From sequence record OR757453.1: 64,000 nucleotides of DNA; one strand, given 5' to 3'. Below the pieces are notes generated by a model. That model did no database searches. It had not been told where the DNA came from and saw nothing but the letters and a program-made list of their open reading frames with translations. Origin of the DNA: Escherichia phage BYEP01. This document shows, piece after piece, positions 2,176-39,389 of the stretch (the first letter of the stretch is position 1; every line of letters begins with the position of its first letter). Both the position numbers and the translations under genes were made by a program.

Positions 2176-3948
2176 TTAACCAACCTGTACGTTTCCACCT
2201 GATACTTTAGAAAGAACCCCGCCATCCATATGAACAGTATTAGATGCACTTAAATTAATATTTGTCGCTGAAAAATTTAAATCTTGCTCAACGTTGACAT
2301 CCATATTTTCAGCATTAACAGTTGCTTTATTTTTAACACTTATGTCTGCGTTTTGGTTAACATTAACAGTCGTGTCTTTTTCAACAGTTATGTATGCTTC
2401 CTGTTCAACAGTTATATCTGCTGTTCCTTGAATAACTACTTTAACATTACCTTTAACTAGGATAGTTCCATTACCTTCAACAGTTTTCGTTTCGTCGCCA
2501 CGCACAAATATTGTATTGCTTCCATCTATTTGGTGGAGACGATTATCCATGTTGTAATAAATTTCTGATCCACCGACGTTAGTCTTTTTATCACCGGCTA
2601 CCAAAAAATTACCATCAGCATTTGTTATATCATACAAATTATCAACAGTTTTTCTTGTTCTTCTTCCTGACGGTGATACTTCCTCATATGTTCCAGTCGG
2701 ATGAACTAATCTGTATCGTTCTTGTCCCGGGGTATCGTCAAATTCCTGAATATGACCGCTTTCAGTTTCCATTGTGTGAACATACGGATATTCACCTTTA
2801 TATGAAGAAACAGGTTCTTTGAATAAAATTCTCGAATCATTCGGAATAGGAGGGTCAGCTGGATCAGAAGACTTTGCTACAGCAGCAGCCATTGCTGACA
2901 AAGACCTAGCTGGTGTTTTAACTTCAATACCGTATGATTCCAAATTCCCTGTAAGAATAATCATGGTAACACGGGATGCACGGCCTTTTGTTTGTTGATA
3001 CCACAATGAATCACGACCAGCTTTATATGCTTTTTCCCAATCTCCGGCTAACATAGCAGTTAACATTGTGTTAAATTTAGCTACACCGCCAACGCCCATC
3101 TGAAATGCCATATTTTCTAATGCCATTTGACGAGAACGATTAACCGCTTGCCAAACTGGGCCAACTTTAGAATGTGATTTAATGTCGCGTTGCATATCAG
3201 CTAAATCACGTTCAAATAAAGTTACCGCTTCTTCCATTGTAATAGAACCTGGATTTCCGGTAATTTCACGACCAACTTGTTTTGATAAAACTTTATTAAT
3301 TTGGGTCATATCACGAACTGGCTGTTTCATGATAAGATGACCAATACCAATTGTCGGATATCCTTCGGTATCCCAATAAACTTTTAGTCTTAATCCTTCG
3401 TCACGGCGAAGCATTTCAGCCATTGACATATTTGGATTATCATCAGTTGGAATCTCTGATAGCGGTCTATCATCGGGATTTATCGCAGTGTCTAGATTAC
3501 TGTCTTGGATAATATTAGAAGACGAATCATATCCTACTTCTCCGCCTTGGTTTAATACGTTAGTATCATTTCCTAGACGTCTAGGATACTGACCAGTTGG
3601 GTCAGAAAATCCTTCAAGTCTATTAGGTTTTTCGCGAACTATTCCGCCATAAGTACCAAGGACAATTCCGTTAGTTTTCCATTTGTCTAAAAAATGACCA
3701 TAAACTCTAGTTCCTTCTACTGGTCCAGTAACGGAACCTCCAATTCCAGACATTGCTGCAGAAGTTATAGGTTGAATAACTGACATCCATGGTAATTTAT
3801 CGGTTGGAATACCCATTACGTCGCCTTGCGCTCTTTGAGGTGGATGCAGACCAACCACACGAACACGAACACGACCTAATTTTAATGGGTCCATTCTATC
3901 TTCAACAACACCAACAAACCAGTTGAGGTTATTACTTATCATTTCCAT
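2176..3948 (-). CDS. 5: baseplate hub subunit and tail lysozyme gp5 (590 aa)
   Basis: Lysozyme-like central domain (EMLRRDEGLRLKVYWDTEGYPTIGIGHL) and C-terminal V-x-G-rich beta-helix repeats; synteny with 53. Confidence 0.92.
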   Translation of the reverse strand: MEMISNNLNWFVGVVEDRMDPLKLGRVRVRVVGLHPPQRAQGDVMGIPTDKLPWMSVIQPITSAAMSGIGGSVTGPVEGTRVYGHFLDKWKTNGIVLGTYGGIVREKPNRLEGFSDPTGQYPRRLGNDTNVLNQGGEVGYDSSSNIIQDSNLDTAINPDDRPLSEIPTDDNPNMSMAEMLRRDEGLRLKVYWDTEGYPTIGIGHLIMKQPVRDMTQINKVLSKQVGREITGNPGSITMEEAVTLFERDLADMQRDIKSHSKVGPVWQAVNRSRQMALENMAFQMGVGGVAKFNTMLTAMLAGDWEKAYKAGRDSLWYQQTKGRASRVTMIILTGNLESYGIEVKTPARSLSAMAAAVAKSSDPADPPIPNDSRILFKEPVSSYKGEYPYVHTMETESGHIQEFDDTPGQERYRLVHPTGTYEEVSPSGRRTRKTVDNLYDITNADGNFLVAGDKKTNVGGSEIYYNMDNRLHQIDGSNTIFVRGDETKTVEGNGTILVKGNVKVVIQGTADITVEQEAYITVEKDTTVNVNQNADISVKNKATVNAENMDVNVEQDLNFSATNINLSASNTVHMDGGVLSKVSGGNVQVG

Positions 3949-9556: not shown

Positions 9557-9643
9557 GCGAGAATGGTCAAATTGGTAAAGGCACAGCACTTAAAATGCTG
9601 CGGAATGATTTCCTTGTGGGTTCGAGTCCCACTTCTCGTACCA
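9557..9643 (+). tRNA. tRNA-Leu (anticodon UAA), long variable arm, CCA encoded
   Basis: Manual cloverleaf: acceptor gcgagaa/ttctcgt, anticodon stem cagca/tgctg, loop cttaaaa. Confidence 0.8.
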
Positions 9644-9649
9644 AAGTTT

Positions 9650-9721
<72 letters not shown>

Positions 9722-9733
9722 AAATTTAATTTA

Positions 9734-9807
9734 CTCCGTGTAGCTCAGTTTGGTAGAGCGTCTGCTTTGGGAGCAGAATGTCGCAGGTTCAAATCCTGCC
9801 GCGGAGA
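9734..9807 (+). tRNA. tRNA-Pro (anticodon UGG)
   Basis: Acceptor ctccgtg/cgcggag; anticodon loop tttggga; T-loop ttcaaat. Confidence 0.8.
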
Positions 9808-9809
9808 CT

Positions 9810-9896
9810 GGAGGCGTGGCAGAGTGGTTTAATGCACCGGTCTTGAAAACCGGCAGTCGCTCCGGCGACTCATAGGTTCAAATCCTATCGCCTCCG
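9810..9896 (+). tRNA. tRNA-Ser (anticodon UGA), long variable arm
   Basis: Acceptor ggaggcg/cgcctcc; anticodon loop cttgaaa. Confidence 0.8.
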
Positions 9897-9903
9897 TAAT
9901 TTC

Positions 9904-9976
9904 GCTGATTTAGCTCAGTAGGTAGAGCACCTCACTTGTAATGAGGATGTCGGCGGTTCGATTCCGTCAATCAGCA
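9904..9976 (+). tRNA. tRNA-Thr (anticodon UGU)
   Basis: Acceptor gctgatt/aatcagc; anticodon loop cttgtaa. Confidence 0.8.
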
Positions 9977-9982
9977 TATCAA

Positions 9983-10054
9983 GGCCCTGTAGCTGGAAGG
10001 TTCAAGCAAGCGACTCATAATCGCCAGATGGTGGTTCAATTCCACCCAGGGCCA
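9983..10054 (+). tRNA. tRNA-Ile (anticodon CAU, presumably modified to read AUA)
   Basis: Acceptor ggccctg/cagggcc; anticodon loop ctcataa with 4-bp stem. Confidence 0.7.
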
Positions 10055-10095
10055 TATTTTGAGAACATAAATACTCTTAGAAATAGGAGATATTT

Positions 10096-10761
10096 ATGTT
10101 CCATTACATTTATAAAATAACAAATAAAATTAATAATAAAATCTATATAGGCGCTCATTCTACCGAAAATTTAGATGATGGATATATGGGTTCTGGTAAA
10201 TTATTAAAAAGAGCCCAAGATAAGTATGGTATAGAAAATTTTTCTAAAGAAATATTAGAGTTCTTTGACGATAAAACCTCTATGTTTGAGTCAGAAAAGA
10301 ATATTGTGACTGAAGAGTTTTTAAAACGCCCTGATGTTTATAATTTGAAATTAGGTGGTGAAGGTGGTTGGGACCATTTAAACACTAAAGAATATTTGGA
10401 TAAAAAGAAAGAAGCTTCCTTAAAAGGAGCTGCCGCTTTTAAAACCAGATTTGAGAACGACCCAGACCTTAAAGAAAAATATCGTAAAATGGGTTCAGAA
10501 AGGTTTAAACAGCTTTGGGATAATCCTAAGTATAGAGAGAAATTTTTAAATACTAAATCTTTCTTGGGTAAGACCCATACTCCTGAAACTATTAATAAAA
10601 TGAAAGAAATTCACGCTAAAAATAATCACCAGAAAGGAGAAAAGAATTCCCAATTTGGTATGATGTGGATTCATTCATTAGATGAAAAAGTTTCTAAACG
10701 TATTAAGAAAACTGACCCAATTCCAGAAGGATGGTTTAAAGGTCGAAAAATGAAATTTTAA
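10096..10761 (+). CDS. segB: GIY-YIG homing endonuclease SegB (221 aa) inside tRNA cluster
   Basis: GIY-YIG motif YIYKITNKINNKIYIGAHS; NUMOD-like repeats; between tRNA-Ile and tRNA-Arg as in T4. Confidence 0.85.
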   Translation: MFHYIYKITNKINNKIYIGAHSTENLDDGYMGSGKLLKRAQDKYGIENFSKEILEFFDDKTSMFESEKNIVTEEFLKRPDVYNLKLGGEGGWDHLNTKEYLDKKKEASLKGAAAFKTRFENDPDLKEKYRKMGSERFKQLWDNPKYREKFLNTKSFLGKTHTPETINKMKEIHAKNNHQKGEKNSQFGMMWIHSLDEKVSKRIKKTDPIPEGWFKGRKMKF

Positions 10762-10764
10762 TTA

Positions 10765-10841
10765 CGGGGCATAGCTCAATTGTATAGAGCAACGGATTTC
10801 TAATCCGTTGGTTGAAGGTTAGAATCCTTCTGCCTCGACCA
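10765..10841 (+). tRNA. tRNA-Arg (anticodon UCU), CCA encoded
   Basis: Anticodon stem acgga/tccgt, loop tttctaa; acceptor cggggca/tgcctcg. Confidence 0.75.
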
Positions 10842-34527: not shown

Positions 34528-35001
34528 ATGTTATTGACTGGCAAATTATATAAAGAAGAAAAACAGAAATTTTATGATGCACAAAATGGTAAATGCTTAA
34601 TTTGCCAACGAGAACTAAATCCTGATGTTCAAGCTAATCACCTTGACCATGACCATGAATTAAATGGACCAAAAGCAGGAAAGGTACGTGGATTGCTCTG
34701 TAATCTCTGTAATGCAGCAGAAGGTCAAATGAAGCATAAATTCAATCGTTCTGGCTTAAAGGGACAAGGTGTTGATTATCTTGAATGGTTAGAAAATTTA
34801 CTTACTTATTTAAAATCCGATTACACCCAAAATAATATTCACCCTAACTTTGTTGGAGATAAATCAAAGGAATTTTCTCGTTTAGGAAAAGAGGAAATGA
34901 TGGCTGAGATGCTTCAAAGAGGATTTGAATATAATGAATCTGACACTAAAACACAATTAATAGCTTCATTTAAGAAGCAGCTTAGAAAGAGTTTAAAATG
35001 A
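34528..35001 (+). CDS. 49: endonuclease VII, Holliday junction resolvase (157 aa)
   Basis: Zn-binding CLICQ...HLDHDH...CNLCN; 157 aa as in T4. Confidence 0.9.
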   Translation: MLLTGKLYKEEKQKFYDAQNGKCLICQRELNPDVQANHLDHDHELNGPKAGKVRGLLCNLCNAAEGQMKHKFNRSGLKGQGVDYLEWLENLLTYLKSDYTQNNIHPNFVGDKSKEFSRLGKEEMMAEMLQRGFEYNESDTKTQLIASFKKQLRKSLK

Positions 35002-35529
35002 CGATTGAAAAAGAAATTGAAGGATTAATTCATAAAACTAATAAAGACCTTTTAAACGAGAATGCTAATAAAGATTCTCGTGTTTTTCCAACTCAACGGG
35101 ACCTTATGGCTGGTATTGTGTCTAAACATATTGCCAAAAATATGGTCCCGTCTTTTATTATGAAAGCGCATGAAAGCGGAATTATTCACGTGCACGATAT
35201 TGATTATTCCCCTGCTCTTCCATTTACTAATTGCTGTTTAGTAGATTTAAAAGGAATGCTTGAGAATGGATTTAAGCTCGGTAATGCACAGATTGAAACT
35301 CCTAAATCAATCGGTGTTGCTACTGCAATTATGGCACAAATTACTGCGCAGGTTGCTTCTCATCAATATGGCGGAACGACTTTTGCGAATGTAGATAAAG
35401 TACTTTCTCCTTATGTTAAACGCACCTATGCAAAACATATTGAGGACGCAGAAAAATGGCAAATCGCTGACGCGTTGAATTATGCCCAATCTAAAACAGA
35501 AAAAGACGTATACGATGCATTCCAAGCTT
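34998..35529 (+). CDS. nrdD: anaerobic ribonucleotide reductase NrdD, exon 1 (3-prime junction approximate)
   Basis: N-terminal region of class III RNR; ORF ends at stop 35541-35543 inside intron-like sequence. Confidence 0.7.
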
Positions 35530-35868
35530 ATGAGTTAATTTAATTCAGGCTCATGTAAAACCGGTCTAAACGGGGAACCTCTCTAGTAGACAATCCCGTG
35601 CTAAATGTTCTTTTGAACTAAATGCCTAACGACTAACCGTGATGAATGTAGCGGTGTAGAATAGAAGCTAATGCTATTCGAAACGGCCGGCATCGAAAGA
35701 TGAAGATATAGTCTAATCTGCATGGCGACATGCAGCAGTCATCTTGTATAAATAAGATTATCTTATGAATACGAGGTGAAACAATGAAATGGATAAAAGA
35801 CGTTGCATATCTATGGACTATCCAAATTTTGTTGTTTCATATAAACGGGCATGAATTTGCGTCTCATG
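35530..35868 (+). mobile_element. group I intron in nrdD without endonuclease ORF (boundaries +/- 20 nt)
   Basis: Same-frame exons separated by stop-rich ~340 nt with group I S-element aagatatagtct, P9 hairpin ctgcatggcgacatgcag and internal TATAAATA. Confidence 0.6.
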
Positions 35869-37160
35869 CTGAATATAATGATGAAGTAAATACACTTTTC
35901 AGCTCTAATGGACAAACGCCTTTTGTAACAATTACGTTTGGTACGGGAACCGACTGGACTGAACGAATGATTCAGAAAGCAATTCTTAAAAACCGCATTA
36001 AAGGCCTTGGTCGTGATGGGATAACTCCTATTTTCCCTAAGCTTGTTATGTTCGTTGAAGAGGGTGTTAATCTTTATAAAGACGATCCGAACTATGATAT
36101 TAAGCAGCTTGCTTTAGAGTGCGCAAGCAAAAGGATGTATCCTGATATTATTTCAGCTAAGAACAATAAAGCTATCACGGGTTCATCTATTCCTGTTTCT
36201 CCAATGGGTTGTCGTAGTTTCTTGGGCGTATGGAAAGATTCCACTGGTAATGAAATTCTTGATGGACGTAATAATCTTGGCGTTGTAACACTGAATCTTC
36301 CTCGTATTGCGTTAGATTCTTATATTGGAACACAGTTCAATGAACAGAAATTTGCCGAATTGTTCAATGAACGAATGGATTTATGTTTTGAAGCTTTGAT
36401 GTGTAGAATTAGTTCCTTAAAAGGAGTTAAAGCGACTGTTGCTCCTATTCTTTATCAAGAAGGTGCATTCGGGGTTCGTCTTAAACCTGATGACGATATA
36501 ATTGAGTTATTTAAAAACGGTAGAAGTTCAGTGTCCCTAGGATACATTGGTATTCACGAATTGAATATTCTTGTCGGTCGTGATATTGGACAAGAAATTT
36601 TAACTAAAATGAATGCTCGTCTTAAGCAGTGGACTGAAAGAACCGGTTTTGCTTTTAGTTTGTATTCTACTCCTGCTGAAAACCTGTGCTATCGCTTCTG
36701 TAAACTTGATACCGAAAAATATGGAAGTGTAAAAGATGTTACCGATAAAGGCTGGTACACTAACAGTTTCCACGTTTCAGTAGAAGAAAATATTACTCCG
36801 TTTGAAAAGATTTCTCGCGAAGCCCCGTATCATTTCATTGCGACAGGTGGTCACATTTCTTATGTTGAACTTCCTGATATGAAAAATAACTTAAAAGGCC
36901 TTGAGGCCATATGGGATTATGCTGCACAACATTTAGATTATTTTGGTGTTAACATGCCGGTAGATAAATGTTTTACATGCGGAAGTACCCATGAAATGAC
37001 TCCTACTGAAAACGGATTTGTTTGTTCTATTTGTGGAGAAACTGATCCTAAAAAGATGAACACAATAAGAAGAACATGCGGATATCTTGGAACTCCTAGC
37101 GTTGTTCCATGGAATTTAGGTAAAATGAAAGAAATGGTAAAACGAGTAAAACATGCATAG
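35869..37160 (+). CDS. nrdD: anaerobic ribonucleotide reductase NrdD, exon 2 (5-prime junction approximate)
   Basis: NTLFSSNGQTPF aligns to remembered E. coli NrdD NSMHSRGGQVPF; C-terminal glycyl radical region and Zn site CFTCG...CSICG; exon1+exon2 about 600 aa. Confidence 0.7.
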
Positions 37161-37983
37161 GTATTATATAATTTATAAAATAACAAATATAATTAATTCA
37201 AAGGAATATATCGGTGCGCATAGCACCGATAACATAAATGACGGTTATATGGGGTCAGGAACATTGATTCGTGCCGCTTTATTAAAATATGGTAGAAAAA
37301 ATTTTAATAAAGAAATTTTACATGTTTTTGATAATGAAAAACAAATGTATGATAAAGAAGCTGAACTTGTAACCGAAGAGTATTGTCTAAAAGAAAATAC
37401 ATATAATATTAAACCTGGTGGAAAAGGTGGAACTGCCTATGAACAGACACTTGAACATCGCCGCAAAAATAGTTTAGCAAATAAAGGTAAAAAGAGAACA
37501 GAAGAAACTAAAATAGCTATTTCACGTGCTTTAAAGAAATATAAACGTACGCCAGCGCATCAAGCAAATTTAAATAAAGCCGTAAGCATAGCTATGAAGC
37601 GAAAAGATGTTAGAAGTAAATTAGCTGGAGAGCGGTCTGAGAAAGATAAATTATCTATATCAAACGGTGTTAAAAAATATTACAATTCTTTGAGTGAAGA
37701 AGAACGCGAACTTCATCGCAAGCGAATTATTGAAGGTAAAAAGAATTCTCCCATGTCATTGGAATCTAGACAAAAGCTTTCAAAAGCTTTAAAAGGACTT
37801 CAAGTTGGTTCAAAAAATCCAATGTATGGAAAAATTTCTCCAACTAGCAAAACCGTTTCAGTTGACGGTATTAAATATGATTCAATTAAAAAGTGCTCAA
37901 ATGCCATAAAAGTTTCTAGACATCTTATACTAAAACGCTGTAATTCTACTGATGAAGCTTGGAAAAATTGGATATTATTATGA
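37153..37983 (+). CDS. GIY-YIG homing endonuclease (Seg-like, 276 aa)
   Basis: YIIYKITNIINSKEYIGAHS; overlaps nrdD stop by 8 nt and nrdG start by ATGA. Confidence 0.8.
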   Translation: MHRYYIIYKITNIINSKEYIGAHSTDNINDGYMGSGTLIRAALLKYGRKNFNKEILHVFDNEKQMYDKEAELVTEEYCLKENTYNIKPGGKGGTAYEQTLEHRRKNSLANKGKKRTEETKIAISRALKKYKRTPAHQANLNKAVSIAMKRKDVRSKLAGERSEKDKLSISNGVKKYYNSLSEEERELHRKRIIEGKKNSPMSLESRQKLSKALKGLQVGSKNPMYGKISPTSKTVSVDGIKYDSIKKCSNAIKVSRHLILKRCNSTDEAWKNWILL

Positions 37984-38450
37984 ATTATGACAGAATATAC
38001 CCGTGCTGCTTTGTTAATGGTCCTGGATGCAGGACAGTTCTTTTCGTTACAGGTTGTTTGCATAAATGCGAAGGGTGTTATAATAAATCAACATGGAATG
38101 CTAGAAATGGCGTTCCATTTACTGGTGAAACACTAGAACAATTAATTGAATGTTTGAATAATGATTATATAGAAGGATTAACTATAACTGGAGGTGACCC
38201 TCTTTATCCTGATAACCGAGATGATGTTCATTGCATTGTTCAAACTGTAAAAAATCTTTATCCAAATAAAAGCATTTGGTTGTGGACAGGGTACAAGTTT
38301 GAAGATATTAAACAACTAGAAATGCTTAAATATGTTGATGTTATTATTGATGGGAAGTATGAGAAAAATCTTCCAACCAAAAAGCTGTGGCGAGGTTCAG
38401 ATAATCAGCGACTTTGGTCAAATACCGATGGGGTGTGGAAACATGATTAA
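37980..38450 (+). CDS. nrdG: anaerobic RNR activating enzyme NrdG (radical SAM, 156 aa)
   Basis: CLHKCEGCYN cysteine cluster. Confidence 0.85.
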   Translation: MNYDRIYPCCFVNGPGCRTVLFVTGCLHKCEGCYNKSTWNARNGVPFTGETLEQLIECLNNDYIEGLTITGGDPLYPDNRDDVHCIVQTVKNLYPNKSIWLWTGYKFEDIKQLEMLKYVDVIIDGKYEKNLPTKKLWRGSDNQRLWSNTDGVWKHD

Positions 38451-38564
38451 ACTGAATTATATTATTGATACTATAAATGATATGATTTTTCATTTTGGTC
38501 CAGAATTTTATTCGCAGTATAGTTTAGTACTTATCAATGCTTGGTTAATCAATTAAGGGTAAAT

Positions 38565-38780
38565 ATGTATAAATTTCGTAAAGGTTTAGCTGATTTTCTT
38601 ACAACTGTAACGTTCTTTTTGTTTATGGCAGTTGGTGCTATTTTTCTTATTCCTTTTATTGCTATATTTTTCGTAATTAGCTTAATTTCTCCAGAAAAAG
38701 GCTTATCTTCTAGCGAGTTCAATGAGCGTCTGGATAAAATTACTAACAAGCTTAATGCTGTTCTTGATAAAAAGGCTTAA
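38565..38780 (+). CDS. small membrane protein (71 aa)
   Basis: TM segment FFLFMAVGAIFLIPFIAIFFVISLI. Confidence 0.5.
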   Translation: MYKFRKGLADFLTTVTFFLFMAVGAIFLIPFIAIFFVISLISPEKGLSSSEFNERLDKITNKLNAVLDKKA

Positions 38781-38782
38781 TT

Positions 38783-39094
38783 ATGATTAGTTTTGAGCAG
38801 TATGTGGTAGAGAGTTGGAAGGGGTTTGATATGTTTGGTAATGACTATTATTTCTATGAATGTAGTCTAAATCCTAGTTTTTGGGCTGGACGTGAACGAG
38901 ATCTCGAAGAAATTAATGCTCGTGCTGAATTGTTAGGTGAACTGCCTACGGTTTATTTTACCTTTGATGCATCTGGATTTGTTATCCAGGTTTATTTTCC
39001 TGAAGAAAATTCTGGCGATGATTCTGTTAACCCGCCATACTGGGCTTATCAAGGAATTATTTCTCGTGGAACAAAACTCGAACTTAAAGAATAA
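38783..39094 (+). CDS. hypothetical protein (103 aa)
   Basis: ORF. Confidence 0.5.
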   Translation: MISFEQYVVESWKGFDMFGNDYYFYECSLNPSFWAGRERDLEEINARAELLGELPTVYFTFDASGFVIQVYFPEENSGDDSVNPPYWAYQGIISRGTKLELKE

Positions 39095-39389
39095 GATTGA
39101 AGTCTATGGAATTCCAGATGAAGTAGGTCGTTGTCCTGGATGTCAATCAGTTACAAAACTTCTAAAGGAGCTCAATGCTCCTTTTATTTTCTATAAAGTT
39201 CTTACAAATAATGGTAAGATTGAGTATGATCGTCCACTGATTGTATCTCTTGCTAAACGAGCTGGATTCACATCTCTTAACATTCGTTATCCAGTCATTT
39301 TCATTAATGATTCTAGACAAAAGAACATTAAACACTTCAAAGAAACTCTCATTTCGCTTGGATATGATAGAGATATCATAGAAGATTAA
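39066..39389 (+). CDS. nrdH: glutaredoxin-like NrdH (start uncertain, possibly GTG)
   Basis: CPGC active site; no in-frame ATG near conserved N-terminus. Confidence 0.6.
   Translation: MEQNSNLKNKIEVYGIPDEVGRCPGCQSVTKLLKELNAPFIFYKVLTNNGKIEYDRPLIVSLAKRAGFTSLNIRYPVIFINDSRQKNIKHFKETLISLGYDRDIIED

Follow-up and report, generated by a model that had tools for sequence, protein, structure and literature searches.

Is an intron that has no endonuclease gene of its own, and a free-standing one for a neighbour, halfway between two ways of carrying a homing endonuclease, or has it simply lost the one that it had? The nrdD locus of Escherichia phage BYEP01 (OR757453.1), a T4-like Tequatrovirus, raises this question. 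Coordinates given here are positions within the window, the 64,000-nt stretch of this genome that was analysed. A preliminary description took the layout for a stage between an endonuclease carried by an intron and a free-standing one. The comparisons reported here lead elsewhere: the locus very probably holds a decayed T4-type nrdD intron, its endonuclease deleted and its splicing retained, alongside an independent SegH.

As previously described, nrdD is divided in the ORF list into two same-frame ORFs, 34998-35543 and 35784-37160. I set the exon boundaries by alignment to the intronless nrdD of phage T6 and to T4 nrdD, which is annotated as a two-piece join.

34998..35535, + strand: nrdD exon 1, codons 1-179 and 1 further nt (aligned with T4 nrdD and with the intronless gene of T6; ORF list)
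35881..37160, + strand: nrdD exon 2 (gapless alignment of spliced NrdD to T6 and T4 NrdD)

The last nucleotide of exon 1, U35535, is the partner in the U·G wobble of P1, and the exon-1 reading frame runs on into the intron as far as a TAA stop at 35541-35543. Joining U35535 to A35881 gives a predicted spliced NrdD of 605 aa that keeps the frame and aligns without gaps to NrdD of T6 (98.8% identity) and of T4 (97.2%), the junction peptide ...QAYEYEV... matching both. The preliminary description had proposed a splice at 35529/35868, 6 and 12 nt away from the U35535 and G35880 given by the alignment. I rejected that placement: it would produce a 607-aa protein reading ...QASEYNDEV... at the junction, with two extra residues and a Tyr to Ser change relative to T4 and T6 NrdD.

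The interruption itself is a group I intron, as had been suspected. A covariance scan with Rfam RF00028 matched 35500-35735 over the full model (1-253) at 72 bits, above the gathering score of 50 (E = 2.7e-16).

35536..35880, + strand: group I intron, 345 nt, T4 nrdD/sunY lineage, same insertion site (Rfam RF00028; T6/T4 alignment; pairing compared with T4)
35529..35555, + strand: P1, exon end UAUGAGU (35529-35535) paired with the internal guide GCUCAUG (35549-35555), read from the sequence
35561..35735, + strand: catalytic core P3, P4, P5, P6/P6a, P7, P7.1, P7.2, P8 and P9 (RF00028 alignment; pairing compared with T4)
35849..35869, + strand: P9.2-like 3'-terminal hairpin GCAUGA...UCAUGC, where T4 has GUAGAG...CUCUAC at the same place

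The intron begins with UAAUUU, ends with G35880 and sits at TATGAGT/ATGAAGT, an insertion site that is identical in BYEP01 and T4 nrdD; this site, together with the extra helices P7.1 and P7.2, places it in subgroup IA. P1 comprises 7 bp with U35535·G35549 at the splice site, and 7/7 of its pairs are identical in T4. Rfam draws this helix in another register, pairing AGACGUAUA with UUAUGAGUU, which I set aside because the splice site then falls outside the helix, whereas UAUGAGU/GCUCAUG puts the U·G pair at the junction. The S element AAGATATAGTCT and the P9 hairpin CTGCATGGCGACATGCAG, both pointed out earlier, lie at 35703-35714 and 35718-35735; the former is the core element AAGAUAUAGUCU and contains the 3' strand of P7 (UAGUC, 35709-35713). 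Across P1-P9 and P9.2, 55/55 tested pairs form in both the BYEP01 and the T4 intron, 13 of them compensatory in what is a comparison of two lineages, while controls in which the partner was slid by 1-3 columns gave 31-39% pairing. Five of the compensatory pairs come from P7.1 and P7.2, and the P3-P8 core, including the P3/P7 pseudoknot, is backed by covariation between these two distinct lineages only. The P9.2-like hairpin has one compensatory pair in register relative to T4, its remaining pairs having been checked by eye in each sequence. The core base pairs are intact and 13 changes are compensatory, so splicing is likely: the intron probably still excises itself in vivo to give a normal 605-aa NrdD.

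What, then, has become of the endonuclease? The ORF list and alignment to full-length introns confirm the earlier observation that no endonuclease ORF lies in the intron. What the intron does retain is a 21-codon vestige and several parts of such a gene, namely a late-promoter motif, a hairpin masking the ribosome-binding site, the Shine-Dalgarno sequence itself, start codons, and the final 15 codons with their stop, these parts being ~98-99% identical to those of full-length relatives.

35739..35779, + strand: regulatory hairpin, a remnant of the endonuclease gene (folding at -17.3 kcal/mol, z = -4.4), homologous to the region upstream of I-TevII in T4
35789..35854, + strand: vestigial endonuclease ORF of 21 codons, MDKRRC followed by ISMDYPNFVVSYKRA and a stop (match to both ends of the F27 protein)
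35793..35805, + strand: deletion junction ATAAAAGACGTTG, with the crossover within CGTTG at 35801-35805 (alignment to full-length introns)

The hairpin holds the late-promoter motif TATAAATA (35747-35754), which the preliminary description rightly called an orphan, its gene being gone; the Shine-Dalgarno GAGG (35773-35776) lies sequestered in the 3' arm of the same hairpin. The regulatory scheme of such a promoter/hairpin/Shine-Dalgarno cassette has been described (PMC2988022). How often TATAAATA occurs was rejected as promoter evidence, with 10 copies in the window against 10.8 expected; its likely significance rests on its position, homologous to that of the motif upstream of I-TevII in T4.

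The vestige consists of the first 6 and the last 15 codons (plus stop) of an I-TevII-like gene of the type found in vB_Eco_F27, whose endonuclease begins MDKRRCTKIKD and ends KERCISMDYPNFVVSYKRA before its stop. Full-length introns contain the direct repeats ATAAAA(A)GACGTTG and ATAAAAGAACGTTG about 700 nt apart, at codons 3-6 and 15-18 codons from the gene end; the repeats are imperfect, matching at 13/14 nt. The BYEP01 junction is exactly an F27-type 5' repeat fused to the 3' repeat, and relative to the F27 and N2 introns 699-700 nt are missing. With its four A's, the F27-type 5' repeat accounts for the junction exactly. A simple N2-type parent, which would have had to lose 700 nt out of frame and form an odd chimeric junction as well, was rejected. 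On sequence grounds, then, the endonuclease-less state is secondary and goes back to an in-frame 699-nt deletion from a vB_Eco_F27-type allele; the repeats at its ends point to recombination or slippage between them as the mechanism. The parental allele is identified as F27-like in type, and the crossover between the repeats is narrowed down to 5 nt. The deletion is confined to the former coding loop and leaves the core and the 3'-terminal elements untouched.

Tracing the intron through related phages places this allele among its relatives. The T4 nrdD (sunY) intron has the same insertion site, helices P1-P9 with P7.1/P7.2, and 3' hairpin as that of BYEP01; its ribozyme parts are 81-84% identical in nucleotide sequence, and the promoter motif/hairpin/Shine-Dalgarno cassette is common to both. 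However, the T4 intron is 1033 nt long and encodes the 258-aa I-TevII, whereas that of BYEP01 has 345 nt and the 21-codon vestige, and derives from a sister variant, the enzyme of which shares 56% identity with I-TevII. Closer relatives are the introns of N2, ELT1, Isf-Pm2 and vB_Eco_F27, ~98-99% identical to BYEP01 across the 345 retained nt, but 1044-1046 nt long and equipped with the 254-256-aa endonuclease gene that BYEP01 lacks. Besides the 700-nt gap, BYEP01 and N2 differ at ~2/345 aligned intron positions, and the nrdD-segH-nrdG flank of N2 is nearly identical as well. The I-TevII-type intron variant occurs in ~45 Tequatrovirus and Mosigvirus genomes. In a search of 50,697 phage genomes, the intron-bearing matches listed each had ~700 extra bases, except for 215Ecol030PP (PP328843), which had 134. 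This phage carries the same variant as BYEP01, with the endonuclease gene likewise destroyed by an internal deletion, but that deletion is an independent one of 566 nt with other end points, leaving a 479-nt intron with mobC, not segH, downstream. In vB_EcoM_F1 the endonuclease gene is split by a frameshift.

The exact BYEP01 junction was absent from the 50,697 phage records (BLAST) and, as a 24-mer, from IMG/VR, JGI metagenomes and GTDB genomes. A 24-mer from P7-P9 was found in >120 IMG/VR contigs, one T4-type contig among them, and none of the matches inspected was ORF-less at the BYEP01 junction. The scan also gave six weaker core matches (70-78% over ~135-200 nt); the other matches inspected covered a segment of ~40-85 nt only and were not nrdD alleles.

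Between nrdD and nrdG lies the 276-aa GIY-YIG gene that had been reported to overlap both, and it does so by 8 nt at the nrdD 3' end and by 4 nt at nrdG (ATGA; nrdG ATG at 37980).

37153..37983, + strand: segH, free-standing GIY-YIG homing endonuclease gene, 276 aa (identity to T6 SegH and position; PHROG 314; NUMOD3)
37980..38450, + strand: nrdG, anaerobic reductase activating enzyme, 156 aa (Pfam Fer4_12, E = 4e-48; Radical_SAM; T6 annotation)

Compared with Seg proteins, the product is SegH: 270/276 residues (98%) are identical to T6 SegH, encoded at the same position. The motif IIY(6-8)...YIG(19-21) is visible and NUMOD3 scores above the Pfam cut-off, while GIY-YIG-type models stay below their curated cut-offs (PF19835, 18.6 against 25; TIGR01453, 50.6 against 56). 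SegH matches PHROG 314, 'homing endonuclease', with E = 1.4e-59. SegH of T6, RB3 and PP01 was reportedly described by Sandegren, Nord and Sjoberg in 2005, and is said in that work to cleave site-specifically near its own locus and to home in mixed infection. In these three phages segH fills the same nrdD-nrdG slot beside an intronless nrdD, with the same 8-nt and 4-nt overlaps; the 6 substitutions in 276 residues make no material difference. In N2, GRNsp7 and others, segH occupies this slot beside an endonuclease-intact intron. Since segH accompanies intronless, full and deleted introns, and 215Ecol030PP has mobC, the two elements assort independently. By these comparisons segH is an already described, independent element, apparently unrelated to the loss of the intron's endonuclease.

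How might the locus have arrived at its present state? Beginning from the identity, boundaries and conserved pairing of the intron, its deletion origin and the identity of SegH, all established here, the sequence of events would be as follows. BYEP01 carries the classical nrdD/sunY intron in the sequence variant common to N2, ELT1 and vB_Eco_F27. Beyond P9, in its 3' periphery, this intron once held an I-TevII-type GIY-YIG gene. The imperfect 13/14-nt repeats would then have recombined, or replication would have slipped between them, with the loss of 699 nt, leaving the 345-nt intron, the 21-codon vestige and a promoter-motif/hairpin/Shine-Dalgarno cassette that would serve no purpose. With core and 3'-terminal elements intact, the pre-mRNA would still self-splice U35535 to A35881 and yield normal NrdD. 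An intron without its endonuclease would be unable to home by itself and has presumably lost its mobility; it would persist because only precise excision restores nrdD, and because the occupied site cannot be cut by I-TevII. SegH, on this account a separately mobile endonuclease, occupies the slot between the two reductase genes in many phages, irrespective of the status of the intron.

Could the intron instead be primitively ORF-less, or an intermediate whose endonuclease has moved out or is about to move in? The absence of an ORF, the adjacent GIY-YIG gene and the match of both endonucleases to the broad PHROG 314 would suit such a history, but the intron keeps the start codons, Shine-Dalgarno, hairpin and promoter motif of an I-TevII-type gene, together with its final 15 codons and stop. 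Furthermore, SegH aligns only partially with the intron enzyme, at no more than 29% identity, and SegH is unchanged where the intron enzyme is intact, all of which makes this history barely credible. The reverse course, full-length introns arising by insertion into a BYEP01-type allele, appears implausible given the in-frame truncated codons. Of the earlier interpretation, then, the ORF-less intron homologous to that of T4, the orphan motif and the free-standing neighbour stand, whereas the splice sites and the intermediate layout do not: the ends of the gene survive in the intron, and the neighbour is the independent SegH. It is also very unlikely that splicing has been abolished, with nrdD a pseudogene that makes two NrdD fragments or none. 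The deletion does bring the 3' terminal domain ~700 nt nearer to the core, and a remnant ATG at 35784 shares the frame of exon 2 and could start a 458-aa fragment, for which an exact-protein look-up returned no record. Moreover, aerobic growth in the laboratory does not require nrdD, and an allele that fails to splice could therefore survive. Yet the core and 3'-terminal pairings are all intact, the deletion falls wholly within the former coding loop, and both exons remain open and match functional homologues at 97-99% identity. Self-splicing in vitro has also been reported for engineered T4 sunY introns without the ORF, by Xu and Shub in 1989 and by Doudna and Szostak in their studies of the sunY ribozyme. 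The junction, being unique to BYEP01 among all collections searched, may reflect a recent mutation of the laboratory stock, a minority variant or an assembly error. That the deletion is an artefact, whether of assembly or as a minority variant of the stock, I nevertheless regard as highly improbable: imperfect repeats of 13 nt are much too short for a normal assembly to collapse on them, real deletions typically leave just such a clean, in-frame junction between repeats, and 215Ecol030PP has an independent deletion.

A more attractive alternative, though still an unlikely one, is that SegH mobilises the intron in trans, cutting near nrdD/nrdG in a co-infecting phage, with co-conversion of the upstream intron during repair. 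In that role SegH would stand in for the missing I-TevII-type enzyme, in the way that mobE mobilises in trans the T4 nrdB intron with its truncated, defunct I-TevIII (PMC2988022, PMC1865063, PMC2790892). Like BYEP01 nrdD, T4 nrdB is a T-even reductase gene with an intron whose endonuclease was inactivated by deletion and with a free-standing endonuclease gene close by; however, it is another gene with another intron, its endonuclease belongs to a different family (HNH), and trans homing is demonstrated there and conjecture here. In favour of such homing in BYEP01, segH starts no more than 1.27 kb beyond the 3' splice site, and free-standing endonucleases cut hundreds to thousands of bp away and co-convert flanks, trans homing by mobE being documented (PMC2988022, PMC2790892); BYEP01 and N2 are, besides, near-identical across 36000-39300. 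Against this, T6, RB3 and PP01 have segH yet no intron, and the deleted intron of 215Ecol030PP has mobC downstream. The T6-BYEP01 low-divergence tract around segH spans only ~37000-38000, and exon 2 upstream of it differs by 3-9%; therefore natural segH tracts seem not to reach the intron site. Papers citing Sandegren et al. 2005 gave no SegH cleavage site. If true, trans homing by SegH would add a second natural example from T-even reductase genes and offer introns a way to outlive their own endonucleases.

For annotation, 34998-35535 should be joined with 35881-37160 as a single nrdD CDS rather than called as two reductase fragments, and the 458-aa ORF from the vestigial ATG should not be called. 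The 345-nt allele is new; this kind of intron and SegH were already known, and no new mechanism is involved. Its meaning lies in the series to which it belongs: BYEP01, the frameshifted F1 and the partly deleted 215Ecol030PP form a decay series of one intron. The nrdD locus thus offers a natural snapshot of the homing-endonuclease cycle, from invasion through fixation and endonuclease decay to an ORF-less intron, and the BYEP01 allele supplies the textbook decay stage in the best-studied phage intron system.

The gene order of the locus is T4-type (nrdC, four small ORFs, gene 49 for endonuclease VII, nrdD in two pieces, a 276-aa ORF, nrdG and small ORFs), and megablast places the phage in Tequatrovirus. 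Its top match across the locus is Escherichia phage N2 (98.6%) and over 24 kb the RB3 group (~96%); BYEP01 itself is therefore absent from the 50,697-record phage collection searched.

An Rfam scan of the whole window returned a single group I intron match (35500-35735; bit score 72, gathering threshold 50, E = 2.7e-16, full model covered), confirming that nrdD carries a group I intron. Its boundaries were set by aligning the window nrdD with the intronless nrdD of T6, the T4 nrdD (annotated join) and that of N2, which puts the insertion point between ...TATGAGT and ATGAAGTA....

Boundaries of the nrdD intron, from alignment to T6, T4 and N2
Ending at U35535, + strand: 5' exon of nrdD
35536-35880, + strand: group I intron, 345 nt, with a terminal G
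Starting at 35881, + strand: nrdD exon 2

Once joined, the exons make up a reading frame of 1818 nt and encode an NrdD of 605 aa that aligns without gaps to NrdD of T6 (98.8% identity) and T4 (97.2%), and the junction peptide QAYEYEVNTLF is the same in all three. Unspliced, the frame of exon 1 ends at a TAA (35541-35543) barely inside the intron. The preliminary description had placed the splice sites at 35529 and 35868. Alignment to T4 and T6 NrdD upholds its claim that splicing keeps the frame, yet those coordinates are wrong because the product would be QASEYNDEVNTLF, with 607 aa instead of 605.

Helices P1, P3, P4, P5, P6, P6a, P7, P7.1, P7.2, P8, P9 and P9.2 were mapped onto an alignment of the window intron with the T4 intron, the latter trimmed to the same extent. 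The 7-bp P1 (UAUGAGU/GCUCAUG) is closed at its end by the pair U35535-G35549, P7 is pseudoknotted with P3, and P9.2 forms the 3' hairpin. Every pair forms in both introns (55/55 in each), and 13 are changed on both sides between these two lineages. No shuffle matched these values, and pairing falls to 31-39% in a control with the partner slid by 1-3 columns. The compensatory changes lie in P3, P4, P6a, P7.1, P7.2 and P9.2, a distribution that, for two lineages only, looks as expected of a conserved ribozyme; P7.1 and P7.2 together are consistent with subgroup IA, to which the T4 intron belongs. The 24-mer GAAGATATAGTCTRAWCTGCATGG, running from the P7 3' strand through P9, has exact matches in at least 120 viral contigs of IMG/VR (loci L010-L129). 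Most of the matches inspected resemble the window intron over no more than a segment of ~40-85 nt, so this short P7-P9 stretch seems common to an extensive family of group I introns in phages.

As first noticed, no endonuclease ORF lies inside the intron. The retained 345 nt are near-identical to N2, and 700 nt are absent, starting right after ATGAAATGGATAAAA and stopping right before GACGTTGCATATC. This stretch codes for the main part of a 256-aa GIY-YIG/NUMOD protein, 56% identical to I-TevII, the endonuclease of the T4 nrdD intron. In full-length introns the endonuclease gene contains a pair of imperfect direct repeats: ATAAAAAGACGTTG, at codons 4-7, and ATAAAAGAACGTTG, 15-18 codons before the gene's end. 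In phage vB_Eco_F27 (OP870146) the first repeat has four A's, and because this run is one A shorter the endonuclease begins at the second ATG (MDKRRC...). The window junction, ATAAAAGACGTTG joined to CATATC, matches the F27-type first repeat exactly, continued by the sequence that lies beyond the second repeat, and corresponds to a 699-nt in-frame deletion with its crossover in CGTTG (35801-35805). The cassette that governs endonuclease expression in T4 is still present upstream of the remnant.

Retained cassette and endonuclease remnant
35739-35779, + strand: hairpin (-17.3 kcal/mol, z = -4.4), 3' arm over the Shine-Dalgarno
35747-35754, + strand: late-promoter motif TATAAATA
35773-35776, + strand: Shine-Dalgarno GAGG
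Downstream of these, + strand: two ATGs
35789-35854, + strand: vestigial endonuclease ORF, MDKRRC-ISMDYPNFVVSYKRA-stop, matching both ends of the F27 protein

The near-identity to N2, the repeat junction and the survival of both gene ends and the cassette argue that the ORF-less state is secondary and recent. The listed intron-bearing records of the phage collection are ~700 bases longer than the window across the intron, with 215Ecol030PP (PP328843) the sole exception (+134), and the exact junction has no other copy in phage records, IMG/VR, JGI metagenomes or GTDB genomes. The window thus holds a new allele, the first wholly ORF-less copy among ~70 intron-bearing records seen. Two other alleles show earlier stages of endonuclease gene decay: in vB_EcoM_F1 (MT682712, 605-1376) the gene is frameshifted by a 1-nt length change and annotated as two ORFs, and the 215Ecol030PP intron (2657-3135) has an independent 566-nt deletion between short AAGAC repeats. 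F27, which is classed as Mosigvirus, carries the same nrdD intron variant (~96% identity), suggesting intron transfer across genera.

The motif TATAAATA occurs 10 times in the whole window against 10.8 expected and by itself carries no evidential weight; 9 of the 10 copies are on the + strand, although the total equals chance expectation, and this bias is compatible with late promoters on the strand transcribed here. From the first vestigial start (ATG 35784, 7 nt past GAGG) an uninterrupted frame continues into nrdD exon 2 (35784-37160, + strand), giving a 458-aa ORF made of a 32-aa leader and exon 2, glycyl-radical end included. Late transcription starting at the orphan promoter would yield RNAs without the ribozyme core and with the Shine-Dalgarno free, and these could be translated into an NrdD truncated at its N terminus. 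An exact-protein look-up found no record of the fused ORF; gene callers are likely to annotate it.

The GIY-YIG gene downstream overlaps nrdD and nrdG much as initially reported.

Gene between nrdD and nrdG
37153-37983, + strand: segH, 276-aa ORF, overlapping nrdD by 8 nt and the nrdG start (truly ATG 37980) by 4 nt

Its product is 98% identical to the SegH annotated in T6, whose gene has the same position and overlaps, and it shares only 29% identity with the intron enzyme, over part of its length. It matches PHROG 314 'homing endonuclease' (E = 1.4e-59), with NUMOD3 above cut-off and GIY-YIG-type models slightly under curated cut-offs. In T4 the slot is filled by mobC, not segH. When segH-type phages (window, N2, T6) are compared with mobC-type phages (T4, 215Ecol030PP) over 37100-38300 (+ strand), divergence across the 5' two-thirds of nrdG (~38000-38300) is 15-46% in 100-nt bins, peaking at 37-46% in 38100-38300, against only 2-4% in the flanks. 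The endonuclease cassette thus seems to move together with a diverged nrdG piece, and that piece may indicate where SegH or MobC has its target or immunity region.

State of the nrdD intron and gene between nrdD and nrdG
T6, RB3, PP01: no intron; segH
N2, GRNsp7, CE1 and others: full-length intron; segH
T4: full-length intron; mobC
215Ecol030PP: intron with deleted endonuclease gene; mobC
Window: intron with deleted endonuclease gene; segH

That all these combinations occur argues that the intron and segH are independent elements. The layout had been read as an intermediate between an intron-borne and a free-standing endonuclease, which is unsupported, segH being found with intronless, full-length and deleted introns alike. 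Co-conversion by SegH might mobilise the endonuclease-less intron, in the way that mobE acts on the defunct nrdB intron (PMC2790892; PMC2988022). However, intronless segH-positive phages are common, and in a comparison of T6 with the window near-identity around segH is confined to ~37000-38000, with exon 2 differing by 3-9%, so I consider this improbable.

Far upstream of the intron, Rfam found seven tRNA genes (9557-10838, + strand), and a gap between them holds a 221-aa GIY-YIG ORF (10096-10761, + strand). Its place in the cluster is the segB position of T4.

Early and middle transcripts reading through nrdD would most likely adopt the ribozyme fold, ribosomes would halt at the TAA that lies six bases past the 5' splice site, and NrdD would be made once the intron had excised itself, as the intact structure and open exons suggest. 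Engineered T4 sunY introns with the ORF deleted splice in vitro. The window intron would no longer be capable of homing by itself, and it would be protected from loss because nrdD is restored only by precise excision, an argument already made for intron persistence (PMC2988022). The intron feature is real and was rightly spotted, with its splice sites mis-set and its evolutionary reading unsupported. The system is already thoroughly known, and the window allele represents a step in the endonuclease life cycle that is familiar from textbooks.
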